64,000 nt of DNA from a virus. Its lineage: Duplodnaviria > Heunggongvirae > Uroviricota > Caudoviricetes. The position numbers and the translations under genes were made by a program. Positions 7,568 through 29,304 of this stretch are shown here, one piece after another (the stretch's first letter is position 1; the number at the start of each line of letters is the position of its first letter). The DNA lies in IMG/VR virus record IMGVR_UViG_3300029732_000280, one strand, 5' to 3'. The notes below the pieces were generated by a model. That model made no database searches, was not told the origin of the DNA, and worked only from the letters and a program-made list of their open reading frames with translations.

Positions 7568-9928
7568 TTATCTTACATACCTCTTCCGCTGGCTGCCGTC
7601 GCGCATCGTATGCCCGTCATAATAGCTTGCGGTATTGCGGTAATCTTCGATATTGGAATCCATCTCTACCTCGGTCTTGGTGTCATCGAACCAGTGGACC
7701 GTAAACTTCAGCGGTGAATGGATCGTGATGGAGAGGAGGAATGCCTTGCAGTGTTCTTCGGTCACTTCATTCAGAAAGGCCACCGTACCATCCCGCCCCG
7801 CCGGGAGGTTCTTCATCCACTCGATTGCCTTTTCCCTTCGTTCATAGTCGCCCTCCAGTTCTTCCCAGTAGTCTTCCATATAGTCGAGCTGTTCGGTCAG
7901 TTTCTGCTCAGTGTCCGTGTCCTTCTGAATATCACACTCCAGTTTCTCAATGAGCTTTTTCTTCTCCTCAATAGAAGCAGGGTCGATCATCTCGTCACCG
8001 AGAAGTTCCAGACGGGTCTGCATCACATCCACCTGACTTTTCAGGATCCGGATCTTCTTACTGGTGCTTTCCACACTGGTGTGTGCGGCCGCTATCTGCT
8101 TTTTATAAAAAGCACGGTCGCGTTCCATAAAATCCAGCTTCTGAATGCTCTCCAGCCGTGCAAGCATCTGGCTTACAAAAGAATCTGCTTCCGTGGTGAA
8201 GTTGTCATACTGCTCTTTGAACCGGCCGCTCATGATGTCTGCCACAGCCACGTTGTCATGGATGGGCTTAAGCGTCAGCCGGAACCGCTCCAGAACTGCT
8301 TTACGGAAGGCTCGGACAACCTGTTCCTCGTATACTTTTTCTGCATGGCAGATACGTTTTCCTGTCGTCCGGCTGCTCGTCGGGCACCGCCAGATGGGAT
8401 AGTTCCCATTTCCGTTTGTCACATGGAAAAAGCGGCCGCACTCCCCGCAGATTAGTCTTTGGGAAAACGCTCTCGGCTTCTTGCTGGATCTTGTCCTGTT
8501 ATATAAATCGCTGTTTACTTTTACAACTTCCTGTGCCTTTTCAAACAGGTCCTCGTCAACGATTGCCGGATGATGGTTCCGGACAAAATACTGAGGAACT
8601 TCGCCTTTGTTGTCCCGGACTTCATGTGTCAGGTAATCCGATGTGAACTTCTTCTGGATAAGGACTGCACCCATGTACCGCTCGGCACGGACGATCCGCG
8701 TGATATTCCCGCCTGTCCATCCATCCAGCAGATCACTGTTTAACTGCCCTTTCTTGGATTTTTTCTTTCTTACTCTCACTGCGTCGGTGACAGGAGCCGG
8801 AATCTTGTCCATGTTCAGTCCCCTTGCAATCTCCGTATAGGCTTTCCCTTCCACAACTTCATGGAAAATGCGCCGGACGACCCTGGCTTCTTCCTCAACG
8901 ATCTCAATATCTTTATACTCATATCCGCTCTCGGAGGTAACCATCTTCCCATTGTAGCGGTATCCGTACATGATCTTGTTTGGAACATCCCCCTTCGGAA
9001 AGCGCATCTTCTGCCCCAGCCGGATGTTGCTGGAAATGCTGCGGCTTTCTTCCTGTGCAATGGCTGCCAGTGTCGTAAGGATGAAGTCGCTGGTCGGGTC
9101 TGCCGTATCCAGATTTTCTTTCTCGAACAGAATCGTTACCCCGCAGTCATGCAGGACATCCAGTGCACTCATAAAGTCAGCCGTGTTTCGGGCAAATCGT
9201 GATATGGACTTGCACACAATGCGGTCGATCTTCCCGTCCTTACAATGGCGCATCAGTCGGCGGAATCCGGTTCTCTTTTCCTTTGAAGTGCCGGAGATGC
9301 CGTAATCGGAGTACACACCGACTGCATTCCATGCCGGATTATTTTCAATCAGCTGGTTAAAGTATTTTTCCTGCGTTTCATAGGAGTTCTCTTGGTCGCT
9401 CATGTCCGTAGAAACGCGGATGTAAGCTGCCACATTAAGGGTTCCGGCTTTCTTTTTGGTAGCCCGGAAGGTCGCCGTCGAAACGAACTTGTTATCCTGC
9501 GGTTCTTCCGGTGTGAAGAGCTTCGTAAACTCACTCTCCATACTGCTCTGCAGCCGTTCTACAATGTCCGGCTCTGCCATGACCTTTTTGGCATCCAGAG
9601 CTTTCTGGATAAGAGCTGTGATACCGGCGTCCACGATGTCTTTTGATTTTTGGGGTGTCTGTTTTTTATCTGATGCGTTTTTGGGTTTTTGTTGAGTAGA
9701 CCTGCCCTGGTGCGTATCAGCCAGTGGTAAAAAAGAAGCTGTGGCAGCATCCGTACTTTGACGAACATCTGCCACAGCTTCCACAGGTTTCTTTTTCCCA
9801 AGAGCGGCTTCCAGTAAAGCCGAGACATCCACAGCAGATGCATTTACTCTCTTCTGCTGTTTCTGCTGTACTGTATTCTTCACAGTCTTTTTCTGCAGAT
9901 TTGCAAGGAAATCCGTACCAGTACTCAT
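7568..9928 (-). CDS. Large serine recombinase (786 aa) with a ~160-aa basic N-terminal extension.
   Basis: AAYIRVSTDMSDQ, SISRFARN, Cys-rich zinc-ribbon region CGECGRFFH...CPTSS. ATG with RBS GGAAAGGAG. Confidence 0.9.
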   Translation of the reverse strand: MSTGTDFLANLQKKTVKNTVQQKQQKRVNASAVDVSALLEAALGKKKPVEAVADVRQSTDAATASFLPLADTHQGRSTQQKPKNASDKKQTPQKSKDIVDAGITALIQKALDAKKVMAEPDIVERLQSSMESEFTKLFTPEEPQDNKFVSTATFRATKKKAGTLNVAAYIRVSTDMSDQENSYETQEKYFNQLIENNPAWNAVGVYSDYGISGTSKEKRTGFRRLMRHCKDGKIDRIVCKSISRFARNTADFMSALDVLHDCGVTILFEKENLDTADPTSDFILTTLAAIAQEESRSISSNIRLGQKMRFPKGDVPNKIMYGYRYNGKMVTSESGYEYKDIEIVEEEARVVRRIFHEVVEGKAYTEIARGLNMDKIPAPVTDAVRVRKKKSKKGQLNSDLLDGWTGGNITRIVRAERYMGAVLIQKKFTSDYLTHEVRDNKGEVPQYFVRNHHPAIVDEDLFEKAQEVVKVNSDLYNRTRSSKKPRAFSQRLICGECGRFFHVTNGNGNYPIWRCPTSSRTTGKRICHAEKVYEEQVVRAFRKAVLERFRLTLKPIHDNVAVADIMSGRFKEQYDNFTTEADSFVSQMLARLESIQKLDFMERDRAFYKKQIAAAHTSVESTSKKIRILKSQVDVMQTRLELLGDEMIDPASIEEKKKLIEKLECDIQKDTDTEQKLTEQLDYMEDYWEELEGDYERREKAIEWMKNLPAGRDGTVAFLNEVTEEHCKAFLLSITIHSPLKFTVHWFDDTKTEVEMDSNIEDYRNTASYYDGHTMRDGSQRKRYVR

Positions 9929-13978: not shown

Positions 13979-16432
13979 TTACAAACTTCTCATGAAGTTT
14001 TCGATAAATGTGGACTGATACTCATGCGCCCTCCAGTTCGGATGAGAGTTTGTATCAGACACCGTAAATGCCTTATTTCGGAGGTCTCCTGCTGTTTTAC
14101 ACAGACCAAGACTGTTTTCACGATACATCATAACAGGAACCTTATCATCTCCCATCATATCCAGATACGGAATGCCCCATTTAGCAGCCACCTCTCTGGT
14201 TGCCTGTCGATACTTCTCGCCACCGCGATCTGTAATGATAATACCGATTTTAGCAAACGGATAGTTTTTAATAAGATATTCCAGTACTACATTCCAAGCC
14301 CCATAAAAAGTGAGGTTCGTTGTATCTGCCAGTTCTCCCAGATTGGTATGTCCACTATCATTAATGCCAAACCACAGCGTAATATAGTCTGCATCTTTAG
14401 GAATCGCTTTGTACCGATTCAAGGAAAATGGATTTCTCGTAGTAATGGATACTTTGGTCGGGTCTGCTACATAACTCTTATCCAGAGCCATAATCGTTCC
14501 ACATTTTGCTTCATTGATGACGGTCATATTATTTCGCTTTCCAATAAAATACGGATAGACCTTTTTATTTCCATCGGCGTCTTTCCAATCAGAATCGGTT
14601 GCACCATTAAAGTCCCCTTCCGTAAAGCTGTCACCACAGGCAATCCATTTCTTACCCCACAATGGATTCGACGCTTTCAATGATTCTACCATCTTGTTCA
14701 TGCTTGCCAAATCAGACTCCAACGTATCAAGCTGTTCAACCATATTGGAATATTTAGTGCCCAATACATCTACAGTGTCTTTTAATTCCATACAGAGCCT
14801 ACTGTAAACAACATTTTCTGGGTCACCCCAAAAAACGCGATAATGGTTATACACCGTCTCCGCAAGTCCAGATAAGTTCCAAGAATCATTCCGATAAAAC
14901 ATGAGCCAGAAATCGTCCTCATATTCCCTCTTTACAAGGCCAGACTGAAGAAGCTGCTCATAAAGCTCATCAAATGCAGCCACAAACCACTTTTCCCTAA
15001 GAGGTTTGAAGAGCATCTGCACATCCACATAGGTTCCACCGCCCCAGGAGTGCCCGCCATTCAAGGCCATTCGTTTTAAGGGAAATGCTTCATCTCGACA
15101 AATAAGAACATCTTTGCCTTTTAGATAATCCAGTTTACCGAGATTCACGCTGAATCCAGCATCCCCAGCTCTCGGAGTGTCTTTATCAATGGCCATCAAA
15201 ACACTGCTCGTACTCAGAGTCACATTGACTGTTTTGATCCTGCTTGCATATCCCATTTTCTGAATGGCTTTTACTACGCCTGCATTATCTGAATATTCTG
15301 CTTTTCCTGCCTGTTCAGCCTGATTTGAATTTTCAGCATGCACAGACTCTAGCGAATGATATCCCTCATGGCTATATCCGGCAAAAGAACTCACAGGCAC
15401 AGCATCGTACCCCACAAGAGCTGCTCCCAGTGCGGTTGTATCATAAATAGAAAATCGAAATGCTGCTTCACCGGTGGGCGGCTGCATTTTACAGTCATCA
15501 TAGACACCAAACAGATAATGCAGGTAGAAATATTCGCAATCACTCTGGATTTTAAGTGCCTTGAAATCATCTGATCCACAGTCAATCCGAAGCTCATTGT
15601 ATCCTTTCTTCAAATGCATTACTTCCTGCAAGGTATAATTTCTTTTGTAACTGGTAAGGAATCCCCACCCCATCAGGACATCACACTCCACGGACGAGCA
15701 CACCTGAACGGTCATCAAATGACCGACATACATTTCCTGAAAGTCTGCCAATGGAATTGTGAAGAAGCCTCGAATAAAGTTCGACCCATTTTTATTGCAA
15801 TGCACATATGTCAATCTGACATCTGCTGCAACACATCTGCCTTCAGCGATAATTTGCTCTACCTGTCCTGTGCTCTCATTATCAGATTCTCCTTTGAGGG
15901 TTACCTTGCCGAGTCCAATTTCTACTTTCAACTCTGATCTTAAAGCACCATCAGTGCGGCGCAGTGCTGAACCAAGACTGGCATAGCCATGTCCATGAGC
16001 ATCTACCCGTGCATCCACAACCTCTGCTGCATAGTCCTTATCCTTGTCAGTCGAAGCAGACACATTAGCCTCCAGTCGCTTGTCCAACGTATCCATACGG
16101 CTGTTCAACTCTGCCTTGTTGCTATTAGTAAGGCTTTCAGCAGAATTCACCCGACTGTTCATGTTGGATTCTGCGGTATCCACATACTGGGTGAGACGTG
16201 CTTCTGTATCTTCCATTTCCTTGACAGCCTCTGCAATCTGTGCACTGTAAAGGCTGTATTGCATCCAGTAACTTTCATCTGAGATTGCAGTACCGACTGG
16301 CACAGGCTTTCTGCTGATATAGCTCTCACCGGACGCCTTATCCAGAACGATACTGAGTTCTTCGTATTCCTTATCGATTTCCCATACACCATCGTGTTTC
16401 GGAACAATTCTTCTTCCAATAAATTTAGACAT
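13979..16432 (-). CDS. Tail fibre/receptor-binding protein 2 with a C-terminal SGNH/GDSL hydrolase (carbohydrate esterase-like) domain.
   Basis: N-terminal MSKFIGRRIVPKHDGVWEIDKEYE is paralogous to fibre 1. The C-terminus has IACGDSFTEGDF (GDS block) and a DXXH-type end. Start is the ATG at 16432 with RBS AAGGGAG; the track start at 16456 is a TTG. Confidence 0.7.
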   Translation of the reverse strand: MSKFIGRRIVPKHDGVWEIDKEYEELSIVLDKASGESYISRKPVPVGTAISDESYWMQYSLYSAQIAEAVKEMEDTEARLTQYVDTAESNMNSRVNSAESLTNSNKAELNSRMDTLDKRLEANVSASTDKDKDYAAEVVDARVDAHGHGYASLGSALRRTDGALRSELKVEIGLGKVTLKGESDNESTGQVEQIIAEGRCVAADVRLTYVHCNKNGSNFIRGFFTIPLADFQEMYVGHLMTVQVCSSVECDVLMGWGFLTSYKRNYTLQEVMHLKKGYNELRIDCGSDDFKALKIQSDCEYFYLHYLFGVYDDCKMQPPTGEAAFRFSIYDTTALGAALVGYDAVPVSSFAGYSHEGYHSLESVHAENSNQAEQAGKAEYSDNAGVVKAIQKMGYASRIKTVNVTLSTSSVLMAIDKDTPRAGDAGFSVNLGKLDYLKGKDVLICRDEAFPLKRMALNGGHSWGGGTYVDVQMLFKPLREKWFVAAFDELYEQLLQSGLVKREYEDDFWLMFYRNDSWNLSGLAETVYNHYRVFWGDPENVVYSRLCMELKDTVDVLGTKYSNMVEQLDTLESDLASMNKMVESLKASNPLWGKKWIACGDSFTEGDFNGATDSDWKDADGNKKVYPYFIGKRNNMTVINEAKCGTIMALDKSYVADPTKVSITTRNPFSLNRYKAIPKDADYITLWFGINDSGHTNLGELADTTNLTFYGAWNVVLEYLIKNYPFAKIGIIITDRGGEKYRQATREVAAKWGIPYLDMMGDDKVPVMMYRENSLGLCKTAGDLRNKAFTVSDTNSHPNWRAHEYQSTFIENFMRSL

Positions 16433-16532
16433 AGGATTCTCCCTTCTGCCGGACAATTCCGGCTACAACTACTATCGGTTTATCCAGCAGATTGGGAGGC
16501 CCTGTCTTGGGGAAATCAAGGGTTACATAGTA

Positions 16533-16541
16533 CCCCCCCCC
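16533..16541. repeat. C9 homopolymer (G9 on the coding strand) in the intergenic region between the two fibre genes, 98 nt upstream of the fibre-2 start. Candidate slipped-strand phase-variation tract.
   Basis: Seen directly. On the coding strand it sits between the -35-like TCGTCA and TACTAT. Confidence 0.5.
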
Positions 16542-16592
16542 GAATTTTCTGACGATTCATCATATTGTTTCCTTTCCCGGCATAATGCCGTT

Positions 16593-19500
16593 TTATTTGC
16601 TGTCTTCCGTCAGCCATGCACGGATCTGGCAGTAATAGCCGTCTGCCCATGCCTGATAGCCTCTTCCGGAAGGATGGATACTGTTGGTCAGCGTCCGGCT
16701 GGTTTCCGTGAATCGGTTCGTCACCGGCTTATCCGAATACGGAAATGCCAGACGGCGGTCCGTGCGAAGACCGTGGGCAAAACAGGTCACGTTTTTGCGA
16801 TACTTGCCGGCATCAAATGCCTTGATCAGTGCAAGGTTCAGCGTGTTGATGCTCATATGGAAGATACCCATGCTGGAACCGCACTGATAAGAATAATCCG
16901 AGCCGGGACCACAAAGACCGATACCGATCTTGCAGTTCGGGAAGCCCGTTTCCTTATCCAGCAGCGCATCGATGAACTGCTTCGCCTGATCCACGAACTT
17001 CTGCACCTCTGCTTCCGTGCGGTACAGTGTAGTGCCCTGTGACACATCATTGGTGCCAAGTGCGATCAGGAAGTAATCGATGCCCTCATAGCCGTTGGTC
17101 TCGCAGTATTTCTGGAAATCCAGACGGCCTTTGATCTTGTCCCAGAACGCATTCGTTTTGCCGGCGTAATCCGTGTCTGCCAGATACCGGGCAAAGGTCC
17201 AGCTGCCGCGTCCTTCGTGCTTGCCGCCAGACGGTCCTCTCGTTCCCAGCTGGTGGATCACGCAGTCATTATCCTCTGCCAGCAGACGGTACACTTCTGT
17301 TGCCACAAAACCATTGTCCACGAGAGAGTCTCCACAGATGCAGATATTCTTCGTGAGCTTGTCCTTCAGCTTATGGTGGACCCTGACCTGGACAGGTTTG
17401 GACGATACCGTATGGCAGTCATCTTCATCCAGACGGCGGACGGTCAGTGCAAAATCCGTACTGTCCTTCGTCGGCGTGTAGTTCATGCAGTACTCGTTCC
17501 GGGTCAGGCTCGGTGCATTCGTGCCTCTGGCGAGCACATACAGATTTTCCTTGCCATCGTGGCGGGAAAGACAGTCAAAGAAGATGGAAAGCTGGCGTCC
17601 CTCCATGCAGTCCCAGTGGGACGGGGTCACGATGTCATCCTCTACAGCCGGAGTAATGGCTTTCTGCACATAATCCGTGATACGCTTCGGGATGAAAGAT
17701 GCCGCGTTATCTGCGAAGAGATCACCCGCTTTGTATTCCTTACCGCCCACAATGAACTTCACATCCGGGTGAATGTGCGGATTATACAGCTTGCTCTGAT
17801 ACCAGGATGCAATATAGAAACCATTCGTACCCAGCTTTCGGAACAGGCTGGTGTCGTACAGATTGATGGTTTTCGTACCGGCATCATAAGCGAGGATGCG
17901 CATCGGCATACCAAATGTCGAGCTGGGTGTGTTAAATGCCATCTCTACCGGATCGCCTGCCATGATCCACTCATAGTGGAACGTATCCGGAACACCCAGA
18001 CACTTGGTACTGACCTGGATCGTACCGGCATCCTGGTCAATGGTAATACCGCCGCTTGCCAGATACATATGGCGGGAATCCTTACCGGCAAGATCCGTGC
18101 GGAGCTGCTGAAAGCGGTCCTCATACTTCTTTTCGATATAGGAATCACGCCGTTCTTCATCGAAAAGCTCACCGGCCTTATAAGTCGTGCCATCCAGCAC
18201 AATGCTGAAAGAGGAACCCATGTGCGGATACCAGAAATGGTTTTCATACCATGCGGCGATATAGTAGCCATTTACTCCCAATGCCCGGAACTGCGCAGTA
18301 TTGTAAAGATTGATCTGATCTATGGACGAGTCATAGGCAAGGATCAGCATGTGATGCTTTTCTGCTTCCGTACTATCCAACATCGGTACCGGCTCCTCAC
18401 TAGCACTGATCCAGTAGTAAGCACCGTTATCGACAACCGCCAGGATACGTTTCGTGACCTGAATGGTGCGGTTGACCGTATCGATCGCAAACTGGCCTGT
18501 AGCGAGGAACATCTTTGCTGAACGGTACTTGTGCCAGGTCATCACAGTATTCGCAATCTTGGCTGGATTGCCATAATCGATCCCGTTGATGACTGTACCG
18601 CTGCTCGAAGGAGCTGCGTATACCACATTCCAGTCAAAAAAGACCGCAAACACAAAGCGGCCCTTTGTGAATAGATCGCCCCAGCTATCGCCGCTTGTAT
18701 TTTCCACCTTAATGACAGGGACTTCTGTCTTTTCTCCCGTCTCGTTTGCGGATGCTTCCGCACCATCATAGTAGATCGCCCACCATTTTCCCACTACTGC
18801 AAAGTCAAACGAGGTACTGTTTTCCGCCACCAGTTTCGTCTGCTCGTACTGTATACCATTTGTACGGCGGCAGACATATACACTCTTTCCCTCCGGGAAT
18901 GTGACTGTCACCTTGCTGCCCGTGAACCTGATATCCACGCTGCCGTTCATCCACTGCCAGCCTGTTGCGTAATTTGACAGCAATCTCATCGGGAGCATGT
19001 TGTCATAGAGGTACACCGAGAGCTTCGAAAACAGCTTTTCATTGGTGGTGACAGAGATGAAACGGGTATTCGGAAGTAGTGTGATCACATAGTTGTCATA
19101 GACCTTGCCGCTCTCTGCCCGGAAACACCCACCGAGGAACTTACGGTCCATGTCATAGCAGACCACGTTGTTATAGTCATCCCGGCCGCTCATATAGCCG
19201 AACTGACCGTCCACCAGAATCGCATCACCGCTGACCGGGACCATGTGCGCCACGCGCCAGCTTTCCGAAGCTACAAGGTTGCCGTTCTGGTTTGCGTAAC
19301 CATTTTTGATCACCCAGTTCTTCATGATATTCTGCATGGAACGCACCCTGCCGACCGCACGGATATTGTCACCGGCTGTGGGATAAGTCTTTCCCTCATC
19401 ATCCACACGGGCATCTACAAGCTCCTGTGCATAGTTGGCATTTTTATCTGTAGATGCCTTGACGTTGGCATTGATCTGGGCTTTCAGCGTTTCTGCAGTC

Positions 19501-19898
19501 TTATCCATCTCGGACTTACTGGCCGCAACCGCACTGTTTGCGGCATCGACCTTCTGGGTGATATCCGCTACATCCTGTGCGGTCATCTTGCGCAGGGCTG
19601 CCACATCTGATGCAGTATCTGCACGAAGCTGTTCTACATCTGCTGCAGTATCCTTGCGGAATTGCTCCACTTCTTCTGCCGTATTCTGGCGGTACAGAGC
19701 CATCTGCTCCGAGAACCGGGAACACATCGCCCAGTATTCCTCCTGTGACAGAAGTGTTCCGGCCGGCACAGGTTTCCGGCTCATATAGCTGTCGCCTGTG
19801 GATTCCTCATACACAATGGTAAGAGGCTCATATTCTTTTGCTTTGTCCCAGACACCATCATGGCGAGGGACGATTCGGTTGCCGATATATTCCGACAT
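16593..19898 (-). CDS. Tail fibre/receptor-binding protein 1 (1101 aa) with a C-terminal SGNH/GDSL hydrolase domain.
   Basis: N-terminal MSEYIGNRIVPRHDGVWDKAKEYE, paralogous to fibre 2. C-terminal ICICGDSLVDNG and LIALGTNDV are SGNH blocks I and III. ATG with RBS. Confidence 0.7.
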   Translation of the reverse strand: MSEYIGNRIVPRHDGVWDKAKEYEPLTIVYEESTGDSYMSRKPVPAGTLLSQEEYWAMCSRFSEQMALYRQNTAEEVEQFRKDTAADVEQLRADTASDVAALRKMTAQDVADITQKVDAANSAVAASKSEMDKTAETLKAQINANVKASTDKNANYAQELVDARVDDEGKTYPTAGDNIRAVGRVRSMQNIMKNWVIKNGYANQNGNLVASESWRVAHMVPVSGDAILVDGQFGYMSGRDDYNNVVCYDMDRKFLGGCFRAESGKVYDNYVITLLPNTRFISVTTNEKLFSKLSVYLYDNMLPMRLLSNYATGWQWMNGSVDIRFTGSKVTVTFPEGKSVYVCRRTNGIQYEQTKLVAENSTSFDFAVVGKWWAIYYDGAEASANETGEKTEVPVIKVENTSGDSWGDLFTKGRFVFAVFFDWNVVYAAPSSSGTVINGIDYGNPAKIANTVMTWHKYRSAKMFLATGQFAIDTVNRTIQVTKRILAVVDNGAYYWISASEEPVPMLDSTEAEKHHMLILAYDSSIDQINLYNTAQFRALGVNGYYIAAWYENHFWYPHMGSSFSIVLDGTTYKAGELFDEERRDSYIEKKYEDRFQQLRTDLAGKDSRHMYLASGGITIDQDAGTIQVSTKCLGVPDTFHYEWIMAGDPVEMAFNTPSSTFGMPMRILAYDAGTKTINLYDTSLFRKLGTNGFYIASWYQSKLYNPHIHPDVKFIVGGKEYKAGDLFADNAASFIPKRITDYVQKAITPAVEDDIVTPSHWDCMEGRQLSIFFDCLSRHDGKENLYVLARGTNAPSLTRNEYCMNYTPTKDSTDFALTVRRLDEDDCHTVSSKPVQVRVHHKLKDKLTKNICICGDSLVDNGFVATEVYRLLAEDNDCVIHQLGTRGPSGGKHEGRGSWTFARYLADTDYAGKTNAFWDKIKGRLDFQKYCETNGYEGIDYFLIALGTNDVSQGTTLYRTEAEVQKFVDQAKQFIDALLDKETGFPNCKIGIGLCGPGSDYSYQCGSSMGIFHMSINTLNLALIKAFDAGKYRKNVTCFAHGLRTDRRLAFPYSDKPVTNRFTETSRTLTNSIHPSGRGYQAWADGYYCQIRAWLTEDSK

Positions 19899-23336: not shown

Positions 23337-26300
23337 TTACTTGAAGACCGAATCATCCTCGTGGATCATGCCGTTGATCTTATCGGCAACGGTCTGTGCG
23401 AGTTCATCATCGTTCCGGGCATTATAGCCGTTGACCGTGATATATACGCCACCAAGGTTGGTCGTCCGGGTGGTACCGCCTCCGGCCAGAGCCGCCTGCG
23501 GGAAATTCCAGCCAGAGCCATCGAAGTGCGGCAGGGTCAGTTCCGGCAGACTGAAGGAACTGATGCCCTCCATACCCTGCTGCACCTTTGCTGCCATCGA
23601 CCTGATCTGGCTGATTAGTCCGCCCTCGCCTTTCTTGATGCCGCCGGAAAGCAGCTTCATAAAGTCTGGCATATAGGTGTCCGCATCTGCCAGAGGTCCT
23701 TCATCCGGCACAGAGAAGTGCAGGAACGAACGGATACCGCTTGCCACACTCTTGACCGCACTGCCGACCCAGCTCACACCCTTCTTGATGCCTCCTGCAA
23801 TACCGCCAACGATATCCTTGCCCCAGCTGACTGCCGAGGAAGCCACGTTCTTGATACCGCCCCAGATGGACGATGCCACGTTGCCGATGGCAGAAGCCGC
23901 ATTGGAGATACCGTTCTTGATGGCATTTACTCCATTCGAGAATACCGAAGTGACCTTGTTCCAGATATTCGTGACTCCTTCCCGGAAGCCATCGCAGTTT
24001 TTCCAGAGAGCGGTCAGTCCAAGACCGATGCCGCCAACGGCCGCCACTGCGATACCTGCAGGACCCGCCAGACCAGCAAGTGCTGTGCCTGCGGATGCGA
24101 GGAAACCACCTGCGGAGCTTGCTACGCCTGCAAGAGCCGTACCCGCACCTGCCGCCAGACCAGATACGGCCGTGCCAACCGAGCCGAACAGTCCTGCGAT
24201 TGCGGAGCCGGCAGAACCAGCAATTCCGCCCAATGTGGAACCCACACCAGACAGAAGCCCAGAAAGACTGCCGCCTAAGCCACCGATCTTCGTCACTACA
24301 CCGGAAAGCAGCCCGCCCAGATTCGACAGGATTCCCCCACCGCTGGAGCCAAGGCTTCCCAGCTTCGAGATGATACCGGAGATTCCCTCTCCCAGACCAC
24401 CCATTTTGGAGGTCAGCCCGGAGATCAGGTTGCCAAAGTTCGACACGATCTGACCGCCGTCTGCACTGCCGATCTTCGACAGGAAACTGCCGAGGTTAGA
24501 CAGCAGACCGCCTCCGTTTTCGGAGCCAAGGACATTGCCGAGGTTCTGCAACGTACTTCCGAGGTTTCCGATGGTGTTCTTCATGGAGCCGAGCTTGTCC
24601 ACAAGACCAGTAACTGTATTGACCGTGTCACCGACTTTGTTGATGCCGCTTCCCAGGTTCTTTAGGAAGTCCGAATTGAAGGTATCGCCAAGGCTGCGGA
24701 TCGCATTCCCAAGGGAACTGGTCTGAGAACTCAGTTCTCCAATGGAATCCTTCATATCCGTAAAGCCCTGCTTCACTTCATCGCTCATACTGCCGACTGC
24801 AGTTTTGGTGATGCCCTGCAGGTCAGTCCAGAGCTGCTGGAACTGTGTTTTCAGCCCGGAAAGCCCGGTCATCAGCTGAGACTGGATACCGCTTCCCACA
24901 TCCCTTGCAGCACTGCCGACACCGCTCTGGCTTCTCTTGATCGTGGTAGCAAAACTGCCGACCACAGAATCCATCCAGTCGCCCAGAGAATCCACCGGAG
25001 TCGTGAGGTTACTGCTCATAGACCCGGCAAGCCCCTGCACAGCCTTCACCACCGACTTGACATTTTTCTTAATGCCGGTCGCCAGCAGCTTCATGAAGTC
25101 AGGCATATAGGTGTCTGCATCGGACAGAGGTCCTTCGTCCGGCACAGAGAAATGCAACAGACTTCTGACCCTGCTTGCAACATTTTCTGCCGCCGCGATC
25201 ACGGAACCAGCCGCTGCCCGGACACCTGCCGCCATCTGGGAACAGATATCTGCACCCCAGCGGTATGCCGAAGAAGCAATCGAACCGAGCGAGTTAAAGC
25301 TGCTCCTGATACTTGCAACACCAGAAGAAACCGTGCTGCGCAGGCTGGACATTGCCGAAGACACCGTGGACTTGATGCTGTTGAAAGCAGAGGTCGTAGT
25401 GGATTTCAGTGTGTTCCAGCCGCTTGTGACCGTACTACGGACAGCTGTGACAGAAGAAGTCGTAAGGGACTTGATACTATTCCATGCAGTCGTAATGACT
25501 GTTTTGATACCATTCCAGCTAGTGTTTGTCAGAGTTTTCACTGCGTTCCATGCGCTGGTCATGGACGATTTTACAGAAGCAGTCGCCGAAGTAGTCAGAG
25601 ACTTAATTCCGTTCCATGCTGTGGTGATAACGCTCTTGATTCCGTTCCAGCTGGTCGTTGTCAGCGACTTCACTGCATTCCATGCACTGGTCATGGACGT
25701 TTTCACTGCTACTGTTGCGGAAATCACATTAGATTTCACCGCCGCAAAGCTGGTTTGGATGGTGGTCTTGATGCTGTTCCATGTGCTGGTGGTACTGGTC
25801 GTAATGGAACTCCATGCGGATCTCATCGCGGCACTTACACCTGCCGTTCCGGTTCTTGCCGTCTGGCTGATGGCTGTCCAGCTCTTACTGTATGCCTGCT
25901 CCACTCCCCTCATGGAGTTGGTGATGGAGGTAGACAGCGTGGTGGACAGGTTCTCCGCCGCCGCAGTCACAAGGCTGGTGTTGGTCGTGATACCGTTTGC
26001 CAGACCCTGCATGAAGTCCGGCATCCAGCTTTCCATATCAGCCAGAGGTCCCTCATCCGGCACAGAGAAATGCAGGAAGGAACGGATACGGTCCGCCACT
26101 CCCGATACGGCACTTGCCACATCCTGAATCCTCGACTGGATACCCGACACAATGTTGCCAATCATGTCAGAGCCCCACGAGAATGCCTGTCCAGCCAGCC
26201 CCTTGATAAAGGAGACTGCACTGTTAAAGCCGTTCGTGATGGTGGTCTTGATACCGGAAATCGTAGAGGAAATCCCGGATTTCATCGAGTTAAAGGCTGT

Positions 26301-29246
26301 GGTCGCTGCGCTCTTGATGCTGTTACTGAGGGACGATACCGTGGATTTCATGGCATTCCAGCCGGAAGAAACCACCGATTTGATTCCATTTACCACACCA
26401 GAGATCTTGCTGCTGATGGCTCTCCAGATGGAAGAAACCGTGGACTGGATCGCAGAAAGGACTGTCGAAATGACCGTCTTGATCGCATTCCATGCCGTGC
26501 TCATCCTAGTCTGGATGCCAGTCAGCAGCGGAGACAGGAAGGATACAATGGCGTTCCATACAGTTGTCACTGCGGTCTGGATTGCAGTCAGCACCGTGGA
26601 GATGGCTGTCTGGATTGCCGACCAAACCGTAGAGAAAGTCGTCTGCAGTCCAGTCAGGAGCGGAGTCACAAAGGCGACGATAGCGTTCCAGATGGAAGTG
26701 ATCTTCGTCTGAATTGCGGTCAGTGCCACGCCGATCAGAATCTGGATCGCCTGCCAGATGGTCTCAAACAGATATTTGAACGCATCCAGCAAAGGCTTGA
26801 TGGTGTTGTAGATGCCGTTCCACACCGAAGTGATCGTCGTACTGATGGTGTTCATGACCGTAGAGATCGCGGTCGAGATCGCCGTCCACACAGTTGTCAC
26901 CGTGGTATGGATCGTATTCAGCACAGACGAAACTGCTGTGGAAATGGCCGTCCAGATGGTGCTGAAGGTCGTCTGGATACTCGTAAGGACAGTCGTAAAA
27001 AAGCTCGAAACCGCAGTGAACACAGTCGTCGCCACACTCTGGATAGCAGAAACTGTGTTTGAGAAGAAGCTGCTGATTCCGTTCCACACGGTCTCGAAGA
27101 AGTTCTTGATACTGCCCCAGACAGTCTGCCAGTCCGTACCGAACAGACCAAGGAACACATCCAGCGCACTCTTCAGAGCAGTAAGGGTCGTGGAGAAAAT
27201 GGACTTCACGCCATCCCAGATACTGGAGAAGATGCCCTTTGCCGCTTCCCATGCGCCGCTCCAGTTGCCGGAGAACACATTGGAAAAGACATCAAATAGA
27301 CCGAGCAGTGTATCCAGAACCGTACTCAATACCGTAGCCACAATCTGGAACGCTCCCTCAAACAGCGGTGCAAGCACCTGACAGAAGCCATCCCATACTG
27401 CCTTCAGTACCTCAGTGACATCCTTAAAATCAAAGCCCAGCCCATTGATCCGCTGTGTCAGCTGGTCGCAGAAGCCTTTCACCTTGGAAACGATGTCGTT
27501 CCAGATGCCGGTAATGGCAGTACGGAACTCCTCGTTGGTGTTCCAGAGATTCATGAACGACGCCACCAGTGTACCGACGACCGCCACCACTGCTACGACC
27601 GGGCCGGACAGACCACCCAGAACCACACCCAGCTTGCTGAACACACCGCTGGCACTGCCCACATGGGTGATAAGAAGCCGGACACCCTTTGCAAGAGAAC
27701 TGAATCCCCGCATCGCTGTGCCGACGGTCGATATGGTCTTGCCAAGCACAATGAGCAGCGGACCAATGGAGGCTGCCAGGAGTCCGATCTTGATGATCGT
27801 TTCCCTGGTACTTTCATCCATGCTGTTGAGCTTGTCCACGAACTGCTGCACGGCAGATACGATCTTGCGGATGGTGGGCATCAGAATGTCGCCAAAAGAA
27901 ATAGCCAGCTCCTCCAGCTGAGATTTCAGGATGGTGAGCTGACCATTTAAATTGTCCTGCATGGTCTCTGCCATGCTCTCGGATGCGCCATCGCAGTTTT
28001 CAATGGCTCCACGCAGTTTGTTGATGTCTGTCTCGCTGGAATTCATCAGGGCAAGGAAGCCGGACATGGCATTCTTGCCAACCAGTGCCTCTGCATTGGA
28101 TGCTTTTTCAGATTCAGTCAAGCCAGAAAATGCTACACGGCAGTCTGCAAGGATATCGTTCAGGCTCCTCATACTGCCATCTGCATTGCTGGTGGCAATC
28201 GTAACTTCACCGATGTTCTTGCCCGCAAAGGTCACTTCACCGGAAAGGTTGTTCATGATGGTACGAAGGGACGTACCAGCCTGCGAAGCCTTGATACCAC
28301 TGTTTGCCATCAGACCGATGGCTTCTGCGGTATCCTCTGCCGAGAACCCCAGCGCACCGGCGATAGGCGCGCAGTACTTGAACGTTTCGCCCATCAAGCT
28401 GACATTGGTGTTCGCATTGGAAGAAGCGGCTGCAAGGATATCTGCAAAATGCCCAGAATCCGCAGCGGATAAGCCGAACGCGGTAAGGGCATCGGTAACA
28501 ATATCTGAAGTCGTAGCGAGGTCTTCACCCGAAGCGGCCGCGAGGTTCATGATGCCCTCGATGCCGTTCAGCATGTCAGAAGTCTTCCATCCGGCCATGG
28601 CCATGTATTCCATCGCTGAAGCTGCCTCGGATGCAGAGAACTTGGTCTTTGCACCCATCTCACGGGCTTTCGCACGGAGCTGATCAAAGTCATCCCCGGT
28701 CGCACCGGAAATGGCAGAGACCTTACTCATCTCGGAATCGAAATCGGCTGCGGTCTTCACTGCTGCCGTACCAAGACCCGTTACAGTGGCAGTCACCGGC
28801 AGGAACTTCTTACCGACATTCTCCACAGAAGATCCGATGTTCTGGAGCTTTTCTCCGGCTTCATCGATTTTGGCAAGAGTCGCATTGGTAGTAGCCGCCT
28901 GATCCTGTAAGGATCGCAGATTCTGTTCGGTCTCCACGATCTCACGCTGAAGAGCATCGTACTGCTGCTGGGTGATCTCACCGTTGGCAAGCTGCTCATT
29001 GGCCTGCTGTGCGGCAGTTTTCAAAGTTGCCAGCTTTTCCTTAGTGGCTTCAATGGCATCCTTCAGCATCTTCTGCTTCTGGACAACCAGTTCTGTATTG
29101 GAGGGGTCCAGTTTCAGGAGTTTGTTGACATCCTTCAGTCCTGACTGCGTCCCCTTAATTGACTTGTTTACACTTTCCAGTGCTTTGGAGAGCTTTGTGG
29201 TATCGCCGCCGATCTCAACGGTGATGCCCTGGATTCTGGATGCCAT
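23337..29246 (-). CDS. Tail tape measure protein (1969 aa) with three internal copies of a ~35-aa motif and very long Thr/Ser/Ala-rich repeat stretches.
   Basis: AMEYMAMAGWKTSDMLNGIEGIMNLAAASGEDLATTSD is a TP901-type TMP core. The motif RSFLHFSVPDEGPLAD..YMPDFM occurs three times. Start is ATG 29246 with RBS AAGGAGGTG; the track start at 29291 has no RBS. Confidence 0.9.
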   Translation of the reverse strand: MASRIQGITVEIGGDTTKLSKALESVNKSIKGTQSGLKDVNKLLKLDPSNTELVVQKQKMLKDAIEATKEKLATLKTAAQQANEQLANGEITQQQYDALQREIVETEQNLRSLQDQAATTNATLAKIDEAGEKLQNIGSSVENVGKKFLPVTATVTGLGTAAVKTAADFDSEMSKVSAISGATGDDFDQLRAKAREMGAKTKFSASEAASAMEYMAMAGWKTSDMLNGIEGIMNLAAASGEDLATTSDIVTDALTAFGLSAADSGHFADILAAASSNANTNVSLMGETFKYCAPIAGALGFSAEDTAEAIGLMANSGIKASQAGTSLRTIMNNLSGEVTFAGKNIGEVTIATSNADGSMRSLNDILADCRVAFSGLTESEKASNAEALVGKNAMSGFLALMNSSETDINKLRGAIENCDGASESMAETMQDNLNGQLTILKSQLEELAISFGDILMPTIRKIVSAVQQFVDKLNSMDESTRETIIKIGLLAASIGPLLIVLGKTISTVGTAMRGFSSLAKGVRLLITHVGSASGVFSKLGVVLGGLSGPVVAVVAVVGTLVASFMNLWNTNEEFRTAITGIWNDIVSKVKGFCDQLTQRINGLGFDFKDVTEVLKAVWDGFCQVLAPLFEGAFQIVATVLSTVLDTLLGLFDVFSNVFSGNWSGAWEAAKGIFSSIWDGVKSIFSTTLTALKSALDVFLGLFGTDWQTVWGSIKNFFETVWNGISSFFSNTVSAIQSVATTVFTAVSSFFTTVLTSIQTTFSTIWTAISTAVSSVLNTIHTTVTTVWTAISTAISTVMNTISTTITSVWNGIYNTIKPLLDAFKYLFETIWQAIQILIGVALTAIQTKITSIWNAIVAFVTPLLTGLQTTFSTVWSAIQTAISTVLTAIQTAVTTVWNAIVSFLSPLLTGIQTRMSTAWNAIKTVISTVLSAIQSTVSSIWRAISSKISGVVNGIKSVVSSGWNAMKSTVSSLSNSIKSAATTAFNSMKSGISSTISGIKTTITNGFNSAVSFIKGLAGQAFSWGSDMIGNIVSGIQSRIQDVASAVSGVADRIRSFLHFSVPDEGPLADMESWMPDFMQGLANGITTNTSLVTAAAENLSTTLSTSITNSMRGVEQAYSKSWTAISQTARTGTAGVSAAMRSAWSSITTSTTSTWNSIKTTIQTSFAAVKSNVISATVAVKTSMTSAWNAVKSLTTTSWNGIKSVITTAWNGIKSLTTSATASVKSSMTSAWNAVKTLTNTSWNGIKTVITTAWNSIKSLTTSSVTAVRSTVTSGWNTLKSTTTSAFNSIKSTVSSAMSSLRSTVSSGVASIRSSFNSLGSIASSAYRWGADICSQMAAGVRAAAGSVIAAAENVASRVRSLLHFSVPDEGPLSDADTYMPDFMKLLATGIKKNVKSVVKAVQGLAGSMSSNLTTPVDSLGDWMDSVVGSFATTIKRSQSGVGSAARDVGSGIQSQLMTGLSGLKTQFQQLWTDLQGITKTAVGSMSDEVKQGFTDMKDSIGELSSQTSSLGNAIRSLGDTFNSDFLKNLGSGINKVGDTVNTVTGLVDKLGSMKNTIGNLGSTLQNLGNVLGSENGGGLLSNLGSFLSKIGSADGGQIVSNFGNLISGLTSKMGGLGEGISGIISKLGSLGSSGGGILSNLGGLLSGVVTKIGGLGGSLSGLLSGVGSTLGGIAGSAGSAIAGLFGSVGTAVSGLAAGAGTALAGVASSAGGFLASAGTALAGLAGPAGIAVAAVGGIGLGLTALWKNCDGFREGVTNIWNKVTSVFSNGVNAIKNGISNAASAIGNVASSIWGGIKNVASSAVSWGKDIVGGIAGGIKKGVSWVGSAVKSVASGIRSFLHFSVPDEGPLADADTYMPDFMKLLSGGIKKGEGGLISQIRSMAAKVQQGMEGISSFSLPELTLPHFDGSGWNFPQAALAGGGTTRTTNLGGVYITVNGYNARNDDELAQTVADKINGMIHEDDSVFK

Positions 29247-29304
29247 TTGCGTAACCACCTCCTTGCAGGCATGAAAAAAGCCCATCTGCACGGGACAGAC
29301 AGGC

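Follow-up and report, generated by a model that had tools for sequence, protein, structure and literature searches.

A hypervariable poly-G tract in a leader open reading frame as a candidate translational switch for the second esterase fibre of human-gut prophages

Introduction

Campylobacter phages carry hypermutable polyG tracts inside receptor-binding protein (RBP) genes, which generate diversity among the progeny (Sorensen et al. 2021, Cell Rep 35:109214; cited in PMC12823448). Simple-sequence repeats, reversible frameshifts and bet-hedging are described in the abstract of a study of T2, T4 and other coliphages (Gomez, Barrick & Waters 2025, bioRxiv, PMC12633550), and the invertible G/C segments of Mu and P1 and the diversity-generating retroelement of Bordetella phage BPP-1 are cited as phage tropism switches (refs 56-57 in PMC12823448). 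In this work we analyzed a stretch of 64,000 nucleotides (nt) from a virus of the Caudoviricetes (IMG/VR record IMGVR_UViG_3300029732_000280; the whole stretch is called the window hereafter), focusing on a tract of nine G located between two genes for predicted esterase fibres, fibre-1 and fibre-2. We propose that slipped-strand changes in the length of this tract switch the reading frame of a short upstream open reading frame (uORF), and would so gate translation of fibre-2 through a hairpin that sequesters its Shine-Dalgarno (SD) sequence; we assign this reading a probability of roughly 0.6.

For microbiome ecology and phage therapy alike, the host range of temperate phages in the gut is a central unknown. 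In bacteria, homopolymers located in promoter spacers are found at porA, opc and fetA of Neisseria and at fim of Bordetella. SD-sequestering hairpins opened by translation of a leader are represented by the ermC and cat leader peptides and by the coat-replicase and lysis coupling of the RNA phage MS2, and an overlap of stop and start codons of the type AUGUCUAA is typical of termination-reinitiation coupling. An original prediction, made from the letters of the window, had proposed that the second fibre is a phase-variable receptor-binding protein whose promoter spacing is set by the G tract. In substance this was borne out, the hypervariable tract being tied to the second fibre; the promoter-spacing mechanism was not.

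Results

Length variation of the G tract

As originally described, the tract lies on the coding strand (16533-16541, minus strand; C9 on the plus strand), within the 160-nt gap (16433-16592) that separates the coding sequences of fibre-1 and fibre-2; the distance from its end to the fibre-2 ATG, given before as about 100 nt, is 100 nt. All genes around it are encoded on the minus strand. It was the only G/C run of at least 7 nt in the window, and at a limit of 6 nt a single further run, a G6, appeared. A run of nine was not significant by composition alone, since 43% of 300 dinucleotide-preserving shuffles of the window reached a G/C run of at least 9. These shuffles usually yielded runs of 8-10, and the window is strongly depleted of G/C homopolymers, so that what sets the tract apart is that it stands alone where such runs are otherwise purged. 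The evidence that is decisive beyond chance is comparative, and consists of length variation in otherwise identical relatives together with the same position in diverged lineages.

An exact pattern built from the bases on either side of the tract (13 and 11) matched 9 viral contigs, 18 human-gut metagenome contigs and 2 isolate genomes. Across these 29 loci and the window the flanks were near-invariant, whereas the tract comprised G7 (two cases), G8 (one), G9 (six), G10 (14), G11 (three) and G12 (four), the modal length in the lineage of the window being G10; these lengths are the consensus of short-read assemblies, some of low coverage, and some of the IMG/VR and ENA contigs perhaps come from the same samples. 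One of the three G11 tracts was interrupted as G8TGG (locus L028). When 26 contigs were aligned over 1450 nt, indels recurred at the tract alone, and in two sets of contigs whose 1450-nt flanks were 100% identical the tracts spanned G9-G12 and G7-G12, respectively. The exact fibre-2 protein of the window is indexed in 755 assembly blocks, and the five places returned with it carried tracts of G9, G13, G11, G9 and G9. An invariant tract in related strains, which would have spoken against phase variation, is clearly not what was found. Contingency loci require a homopolymer of sufficient length for slippage (about 7-8 nt or more), with length polymorphism among otherwise identical genomes; the tract has nine G here and 7-17 in relatives, and with its range of G7-G13 among near-identical contigs it behaves like a contingency tract that is hypermutable and linked to the second fibre.

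The two isolates carrying the phage segment are labelled Faecalibacterium intestinale (L030, NZ_JBBMEN010000005.1), with a G11 tract in the read-through frame, and Blautia faecis (L031, NZ_JAJCIA010000004.1), with G12. Their flanks were identical to those of other contigs over 1450 nt, though the labels correspond to two different bacterial families; this could reflect a broad lysogenic host range, contamination or mislabelling.

Association of the tract with second and third fibre genes

With an alignment of the N-terminal anchor domain obtained from distant homologues, 78 viral loci were fetched, containing 116 fibre genes of the anchor family. G/C runs of at least 7 nt in these loci were exclusively G on the coding strand, comprised 7-17 G and were located about 70-160 nt upstream of a fibre start codon. 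Such a run preceded 41 of the 41 second or third fibre genes, whose upstream gaps measured 132-251 nt, and none of the 75 first, tightly packed, fibre genes, with upstream gaps from -1 to 33 nt and one of 81 nt. The spacer sequences fell into at least six mutually unalignable groups (group A includes the window), indicating that the tract was kept, or re-acquired with its module, while its surroundings changed. The tract was flanked as C-Gn-TA in 29 of 32 distinct sequences. The exclusive orientation fits a translated tract, since a G run in the messenger encodes glycine and a C run would encode poly-proline; strand-specific mutation bias could be another cause.

Very long tracts, such as G17 (L059, position 9961) and G15 (L109, position 9999), were far above the G7-G13 of the lineage of the window. 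Locus L093 presented two complete poly-G leader modules in tandem, at positions 2339 and 4885, with tracts of G13 and G12, respectively, and an anchor-family fibre gene after each of them; a first fibre, if there is one, would be situated upstream of the part that was fetched. The two fibre genes of L093 would be independently switchable. Some copies of the module looked degenerate, namely those of L028 (interrupted tract), L098 (first uORF ATG changed to ACG), L101 and L109.

These distributions bear on whether the tract has any function at all, being perhaps a neutral mutational hotspot or a homopolymer artefact of assembly or sequencing. Homopolymer lengths from short reads are error-prone, several contigs had low coverage, and by composition a G/C run of at least 9 is not improbable. 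We consider such an absence of function scarcely credible, as the same position and G-on-coding-strand orientation are kept in at least six lineages with flanks diverged beyond alignment, the tract distinguishes second and third fibres from first fibres in the counts given above and is present in isolate genomes, its 7-17 range exceeds plausible miscalling, and the rest of the window is purged of G/C runs.

The sequences on both sides of the tract also allowed the promoter-spacing mechanism to be weighed, according to which the tract would set the distance between a -35-like TCGTCA (16555-16550) and a -10-like TACTAT (16532-16527) and tune fibre-2 transcription. Both hexamers are present at the places claimed, separated by 17 nt at G9 and by 18 nt at the modal G10, near the sigma-70 optimum, so that the majority of observed lengths (G9, G10) would be "on". 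They match the consensus at only 4 of 6 positions each (8/12), below the threshold of the promoter scan, which did not call them, and the geometry was not conserved across the groups: downstream of the tract they have TACTAT, TACTCC, TAAAAC, TATCGG or AACTCC, most of these without the final T of a -10 hexamer, which is missing from the TACTCC, TAAAAC and TATCGG of lineages other than that of the window, and the sequence at the -35 position was not conserved between groups either. No sigma-70-like site was called in the spacers of L061 or L056. The gap of the window has no terminator after fibre-1 on the coding strand, so read-through transcription into fibre-2 is expected anyway. A mechanism of this kind would, moreover, leave the uORF, its frame-specific stops, the SD-sequestering hairpin and the exclusive orientation of the G run unexplained, and we regard it as very unlikely.

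A small hairpin (CGGCAUUAUGCCG, 16578..16590, minus strand) is located between the fibre-1 stop and the uORF SD and is followed by no U-run on the coding strand. A T-run occurs only on the plus (antisense) strand, where the element was listed as terminator-like (CGGCATAATGCCG TTTTATTT). Its variants in relatives keep pairing only through G-U wobble, a pattern that is not decisive, and small hairpins were also seen at the matching position in groups B and C.

The leader open reading frame and its frame-specific stops

A short ORF with a ribosome-binding site and start codon of its own encloses the tract: an SD, AAAGGA (16570..16575, minus strand), precedes the uORF ATG (16563-16561, with a second ATG at 16560) by 6-7 nt, the whole being read as AAAGGA-N7-ATG at 16575-16561. 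The point at which this frame ends depends on the number n of G in the tract. At n = 0 mod 3 (G9 and G12), the uORF as read in the window covers 16516..16563 (minus strand), encodes MMNRQKIRGGVLCNP and stops at the TGA 16518-16516; at n = 1 mod 3 (G7, G10 and G13), a TAA at 16523..16525 ends a peptide of 13 amino acids (aa). Both short-frame stops are located 7-14 nt past the tract. At n = 2 mod 3 (G8 and G11), the frame remains open for 45-46 aa, up to a TAA at 16425..16427 that overlaps the fibre-2 start (ATG 16432-16430) as AUGUCUAA. In L112, which has a G11 tract, the gene caller annotated the 46-aa long-frame ORF across the gap.

The same architecture was conserved among relatives. An SD-like motif was found 5-12 nt before the uORF ATG in 30 of 33 distinct related sequences, with the short ORF running into the tract. 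In every group two of the three frames met a stop codon 0-29 nt past the tract, and exactly one frame per group continued through a CCUCC or UCUCC motif complementary to the fibre SD (anti-SD), so that the uORF overlaps the 5' anti-SD arm of the hairpin in that frame only. Past the anti-SD came a variable stem and loop, the fibre SD (GGAGG or GGGAG) and the fibre ATG. The end of the long frame varied in position: in groups C and D it came directly after the anti-SD motif, with peptides ending in SPP or TPP and the stop; in groups A' and E, 7-23 nt before the fibre ATG; and in groups A and B, 5 nt past the fibre ATG, as ATGNCTAA. The anti-SD was read in the long frame as Pro-Pro in 26 of the 26 sequences having CCUCC, and as Pro-Pro-stop in groups C and D. 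Such contexts are known for slow elongation and slow termination.

A conserved protein function for the 45-aa long-frame product was considered and rejected, as peptides of different groups were unrelated apart from the Pro-Pro that the anti-SD imposes; within the lineage of the window the long-frame peptide showed three synonymous and five non-synonymous changes and one indel. Just past the tract there is a C/U-rich stretch (16511-16532 in the window, with equivalents in relatives, e.g., UACUCCUCCC in group C), for which pairing with the G run was predicted in several groups; it may serve as a slippage stimulator or as a second anti-SD.

The hairpin hiding the fibre-2 Shine-Dalgarno sequence

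The 186-nt leader RNA of the window had a predicted minimum free energy (MFE) of -62.2 kcal/mol (z = -3.4), and none of 200 shuffles was as stable. The dominant element was a long imperfect hairpin (16427..16507, minus strand) whose 5' arm contains the anti-SD CUCCC (16498-16494) and whose 3' arm contains both the fibre-2 SD GGGAG (16443-16439) and the AUG (16432-16430); CUCCC was predicted to pair with GGGAG, and the AUG was also paired. A hairpin CCGGA-ATTG-TCCGG had been noticed 5' of the ribosome-binding site. It is present (16463-16448; as GCCGGA-ATTG-TCCGGC, GCCGGAAUUGUCCGGC, it occupies 16448..16463 on the minus strand) but is better seen as one arm of this larger, conserved SD-sequestering hairpin, in which it constitutes an alternative pairing of the 3' arm that would free the SD; the MFE structure prefers the long-range pairing.

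Pairing between SD and anti-SD was predicted in every group, the partner in group B being weaker (CUUC or similar). In 33 distinct MFE folds the SD was fully paired in most cases and otherwise paired at no fewer than 4 of 5 bases, the value being 4 of 5 in three folds; folding energies ranged from -22 to -56 kcal/mol, with z scores from about -0.6 to -8, group B being the weakest. Under a strict criterion that required all four bases to be paired, the SD was sequestered in the MFE structure of 24 of the 41 second or third fibres vs. 1 of the 75 first fibres. Covariation evidence came from group C, because the lineage of the window varies too little. In the eight sequences of this group the inner stems were unrelated in sequence yet complementary, with 23 pairs and 92.3% of cells paired, in contrast with 40-48% when the 3' partners were slid by 1-3 columns as a control. 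Nine pairs showed compensatory double changes, and none of 500 column shuffles reached the observed value on any of five measures. This indicated that the SD-sequestering hairpin of group C is conserved by covariation. The Rfam 15 covariance models gave no match at gathering score in the region 16300-16750, where two sub-threshold chance matches were the only hits.

A hairpin at this position could also act on transcription, as in pyrBI-like attenuation: it would be an intrinsic terminator, blocked when a long-frame ribosome follows close behind the RNA polymerase. Groups C and D and locus L101 do have a U-rich run after the 3' arm, just before the fibre AUG (GGAGAUUUUUUAUG, GGAGAAUUUUCAUUAUG), and there attenuation may form an added layer of control. 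No U-run follows the hairpin in the lineage of the window or in groups B and E (GGGAGAAUCCUAUG), and the terminator scan called nothing in L061 or L056, nor at the long hairpin of the window, which was consequently rejected as a terminator. Sequestration of the SD is the feature common to all groups, and attenuation as the general mechanism seems to us highly improbable.

Proposed effect of tract length on fibre-2 translation

According to the uORF-frame reading, the default state would be one in which the ribosome-binding site and start codon of fibre-2 are locked in the hairpin through pairing of CUCCC with GGGAG. In two of the three length classes, ribosomes translating the uORF would stop soon after the tract, the hairpin would stay closed and fibre-2 would be poorly translated. 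At n = 2 mod 3 (G8, G11), they would read through the anti-SD arm and terminate at the UAA that overlaps the fibre-2 AUG, opening the hairpin and coupling translation into fibre-2; a pause at the Pro-Pro encoded by the anti-SD would presumably hold the hairpin open. Replication slippage would then give rise to mixed progeny, in which a minority of genomes makes virions with the second esterase fibre, and we infer that this could benefit the phage as bet-hedging of host range.

Ribosome occupancy was approximated with a crude footprint model, in which about 30 nt under a terminating ribosome were forced to be unpaired and pairing probabilities were recomputed. In the ribosome-free leader, the predicted probability of an unpaired SD was at most 0.006 for groups A, C, D and E and about 0.2 for group B. 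Placing the ribosome at the long-frame stop raised it to 0.3-1.0, and for most short-frame terminations it was about 0. The G9 of the window is a short-frame state, which would be off or at most partly open, and the modal G10 of its lineage is likewise a short-frame state.

Several observations weigh against this reading. The on/off assignment relies on RNA-folding predictions and on the crude footprint constraint, and in the same model the G9 class of the window reached 0.44 SD opening and one class of group E 0.59; partial opening at G9 means that the switch may be graded and not binary. The read-through frame occurred in only 9 of 53 unique contexts (17%, vs. 33% expected for equal frames), so that either the "on" state is rare in assemblies or the assignment is incomplete. 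For any single lineage, having two frames closed and one open is only modestly improbable, and consensus homopolymer lengths from short-read assemblies carry some error. As for the conserved elements, L101 lacks an ATG-initiated uORF and L098 and L109 lack a clear SD; in the window's own lineage six of eight changes in the hairpin keep pairing, all by wobble, which was not significant. Possible reasons for the scarcity of the read-through frame include equilibria of tract length in prophages, a cost of fibre-2, or slippage at the RNA level that gives low expression from "off" genomes.

The last of these leads to a further explanation, in which slippage of the RNA polymerase on the G run, or frameshifting of ribosomes on its GGG codons, would recode the uORF in a non-heritable manner; a fixed small share of uORF translation would enter the read-through frame and set a low stoichiometry of fibre-2, DNA variation being a by-product. 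It would use the same conserved architecture of uORF, anti-SD and hairpin and would account for assemblies that are mostly in a short frame with the fibre gene intact; the pairing of the G run with the downstream C/U-rich stretch predicted in several groups could constitute a stimulatory structure. Differences at the DNA level between otherwise identical genomes are, however, large (G7-G13) and common, so that heritable switching must occur, and efficient transcriptional slippage is documented mainly for A/T runs. Recoding of this type is therefore unlikely to be the whole explanation, and may act alongside the uORF-frame switch instead of replacing it.

The fibre genes and their surroundings

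Both fibre genes are transcribed from the minus strand. Fibre-1 (19898..16593, 1101 aa) follows the preceding gene with a spacing of only 22 nt and has no switch upstream, whereas fibre-2 (16432..13979, 817 aa) is the gene under the proposed control. They had been described as paralogues with a common N-terminal anchor and a different remainder, and their N-termini indeed showed 42% identity over 188 aa (E = 3e-37), with no similarity beyond. The C-terminal SGNH/GDSL domains likewise attributed to both were recovered above the curated Pfam cut-offs: that of fibre-2 matched PF13472 with 35.9 bits (cut-off 32.9), and that of fibre-1 matched PF00657 with 34.1 bits (cut-off 23.6). The GDS, G-x-N-D and H-P blocks were identified by eye in the translations (CGDSF, GIND and SHP in fibre-2; CGDSL, GTND and IHP in fibre-1), and the two C-termini are thus predicted SGNH/GDSL hydrolases.

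Downstream of its conserved anchor, fibre-2 has an exchangeable distal part. Its distal two-thirds (13979-16000) form an exchanged cassette relative to L003, a common relative: DNA identity was 96.6% over the first 533 nt past the tract, was lost for about 2 kilobases (kb) and was 100% over the last 147 nt before the holin gene, and in fibre-1 it was 98.1% over 3.5 kb. In the majority of relatives fibre-2 has 760 aa, and both its body and its GDSL domain are different. A search for relatives with the whole fibre-2 protein gave only two partial matches, because the distal part is the swapped cassette. In L015, L019 and L021, which are near-identical contigs, the fibre-2 ORF was shortened to 199, 279 and 636 aa, respectively; this could be due to pseudogenisation of a switchable fibre or to assembly errors at low coverage.

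Matches to PHROG placed the region at the tail-tip and lysis end of a temperate siphophage. The order was tape measure (29285..23337), Dit, Tal, a 222-aa protein, fibre-1, the gap, fibre-2, holin, two endolysins and a large serine integrase, with terminase and major head protein further upstream. The integrase (7568-9928, minus strand; 9928..7568 in the direction of transcription) is a large serine recombinase of 786 aa that matched PHROG integrases and DNA invertases, is located downstream of the lysis genes and marks the element as temperate. In loci L110-L114, a 260-aa protein matching PF18813 (PBECR4) is encoded on the opposite strand, about 120 nt beyond the gene of a 487-aa endolysin. 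A megablast search with the fibre region against 50,697 phage records gave no match, and tblastn with the anchor domain against that collection gave distant matches only (29-49% identity), in crAss-like phages and an Eggerthella phage; there was therefore no annotated close relative among these records.

Discussion

The element is modular and conserved, and it is abundant among prophages of the human gut. It seems to us an evenly balanced question whether such poly-G leaders are horizontally shared and are the standard route by which a wide range of Clostridia prophages of the human gut supplies its virions, at random, with auxiliary esterase fibres whose cassettes can be exchanged. Should this be the case, very common prophages of the human gut would hedge their receptor specificity, and phages with two switches in tandem, such as L093, would generate combinatorial virion populations. 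Phase variation would depend on the choice of uORF frame and on translational unmasking instead of on promoter spacing or the coding frame of the switched gene, which would add a mechanistic class to the known forms of phase variation. The switch would be compact and predictable, would keep the fibre gene intact and would need neither invertase nor reverse transcriptase. Consensus assemblies would then hide functionally distinct subpopulations. As the motif is searchable, switchable fibres could be annotated in metagenomes. The combination of uORF, G run and anti-SD is small enough to be tested and reused as a synthetic stochastic switch, a tract-locked form of which would have the G run recoded to GGAGGTGGA for each frame.

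In the open-access literature, polyG and contingency loci of phages were found, with no description of a uORF-gated polyG switch nor of this element in Faecalibacterium prophages. The promoter-spacer homopolymers of Neisseria and Bordetella resemble the tract in being placed upstream of the regulated gene and not within it; the difference is that the flanking -35 and -10 hexamers are not conserved here. With ermC, cat and MS2 the locus shares a downstream SD hidden in a hairpin, the 5' arm of which ribosomes on an upstream ORF cover there and would cover here. The hairpins of those systems open through drug-induced stalling or constitutive translation upstream, whereas here opening would depend on a heritable and reversible homopolymer length.

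Among phages, the polyG loci of Campylobacter phages, as cited in PMC12823448, are similar in that phage-encoded poly-G contingency tracts diversify receptor-binding proteins among progeny. In those phages, which are virulent myophages of Campylobacter, the tract lies inside the RBP coding sequence and frameshifts the protein; in the temperate siphophages described here, whose hosts would be gut Clostridia (matches are labelled Faecalibacterium and Blautia), it lies in a separate leader ORF 100 nt upstream, neither fibre gene of the window contains a G/C run of at least 7 nt, and the fibre ORF stays intact in all states. For T2 agt and T4 rIIA the tract is likewise inside the affected gene, and the abstract on the coliphage contingency loci names no leader ORF or SD-sequestering hairpin (PMC12633550). 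Mu, P1 and BPP-1 have in common with the present locus a stochastic diversification of tail-fibre specificity within one phage lineage, achieved, according to the citing source, by site-specific inversion or mutagenic retrohoming (PMC12823448); this element has no invertase-flanked segment or reverse transcriptase. The element thus joins two known ideas, with a homopolymer located outside both the regulated gene and its promoter, in a leader ORF whose reading frame would gate the unmasking of a Shine-Dalgarno sequence.

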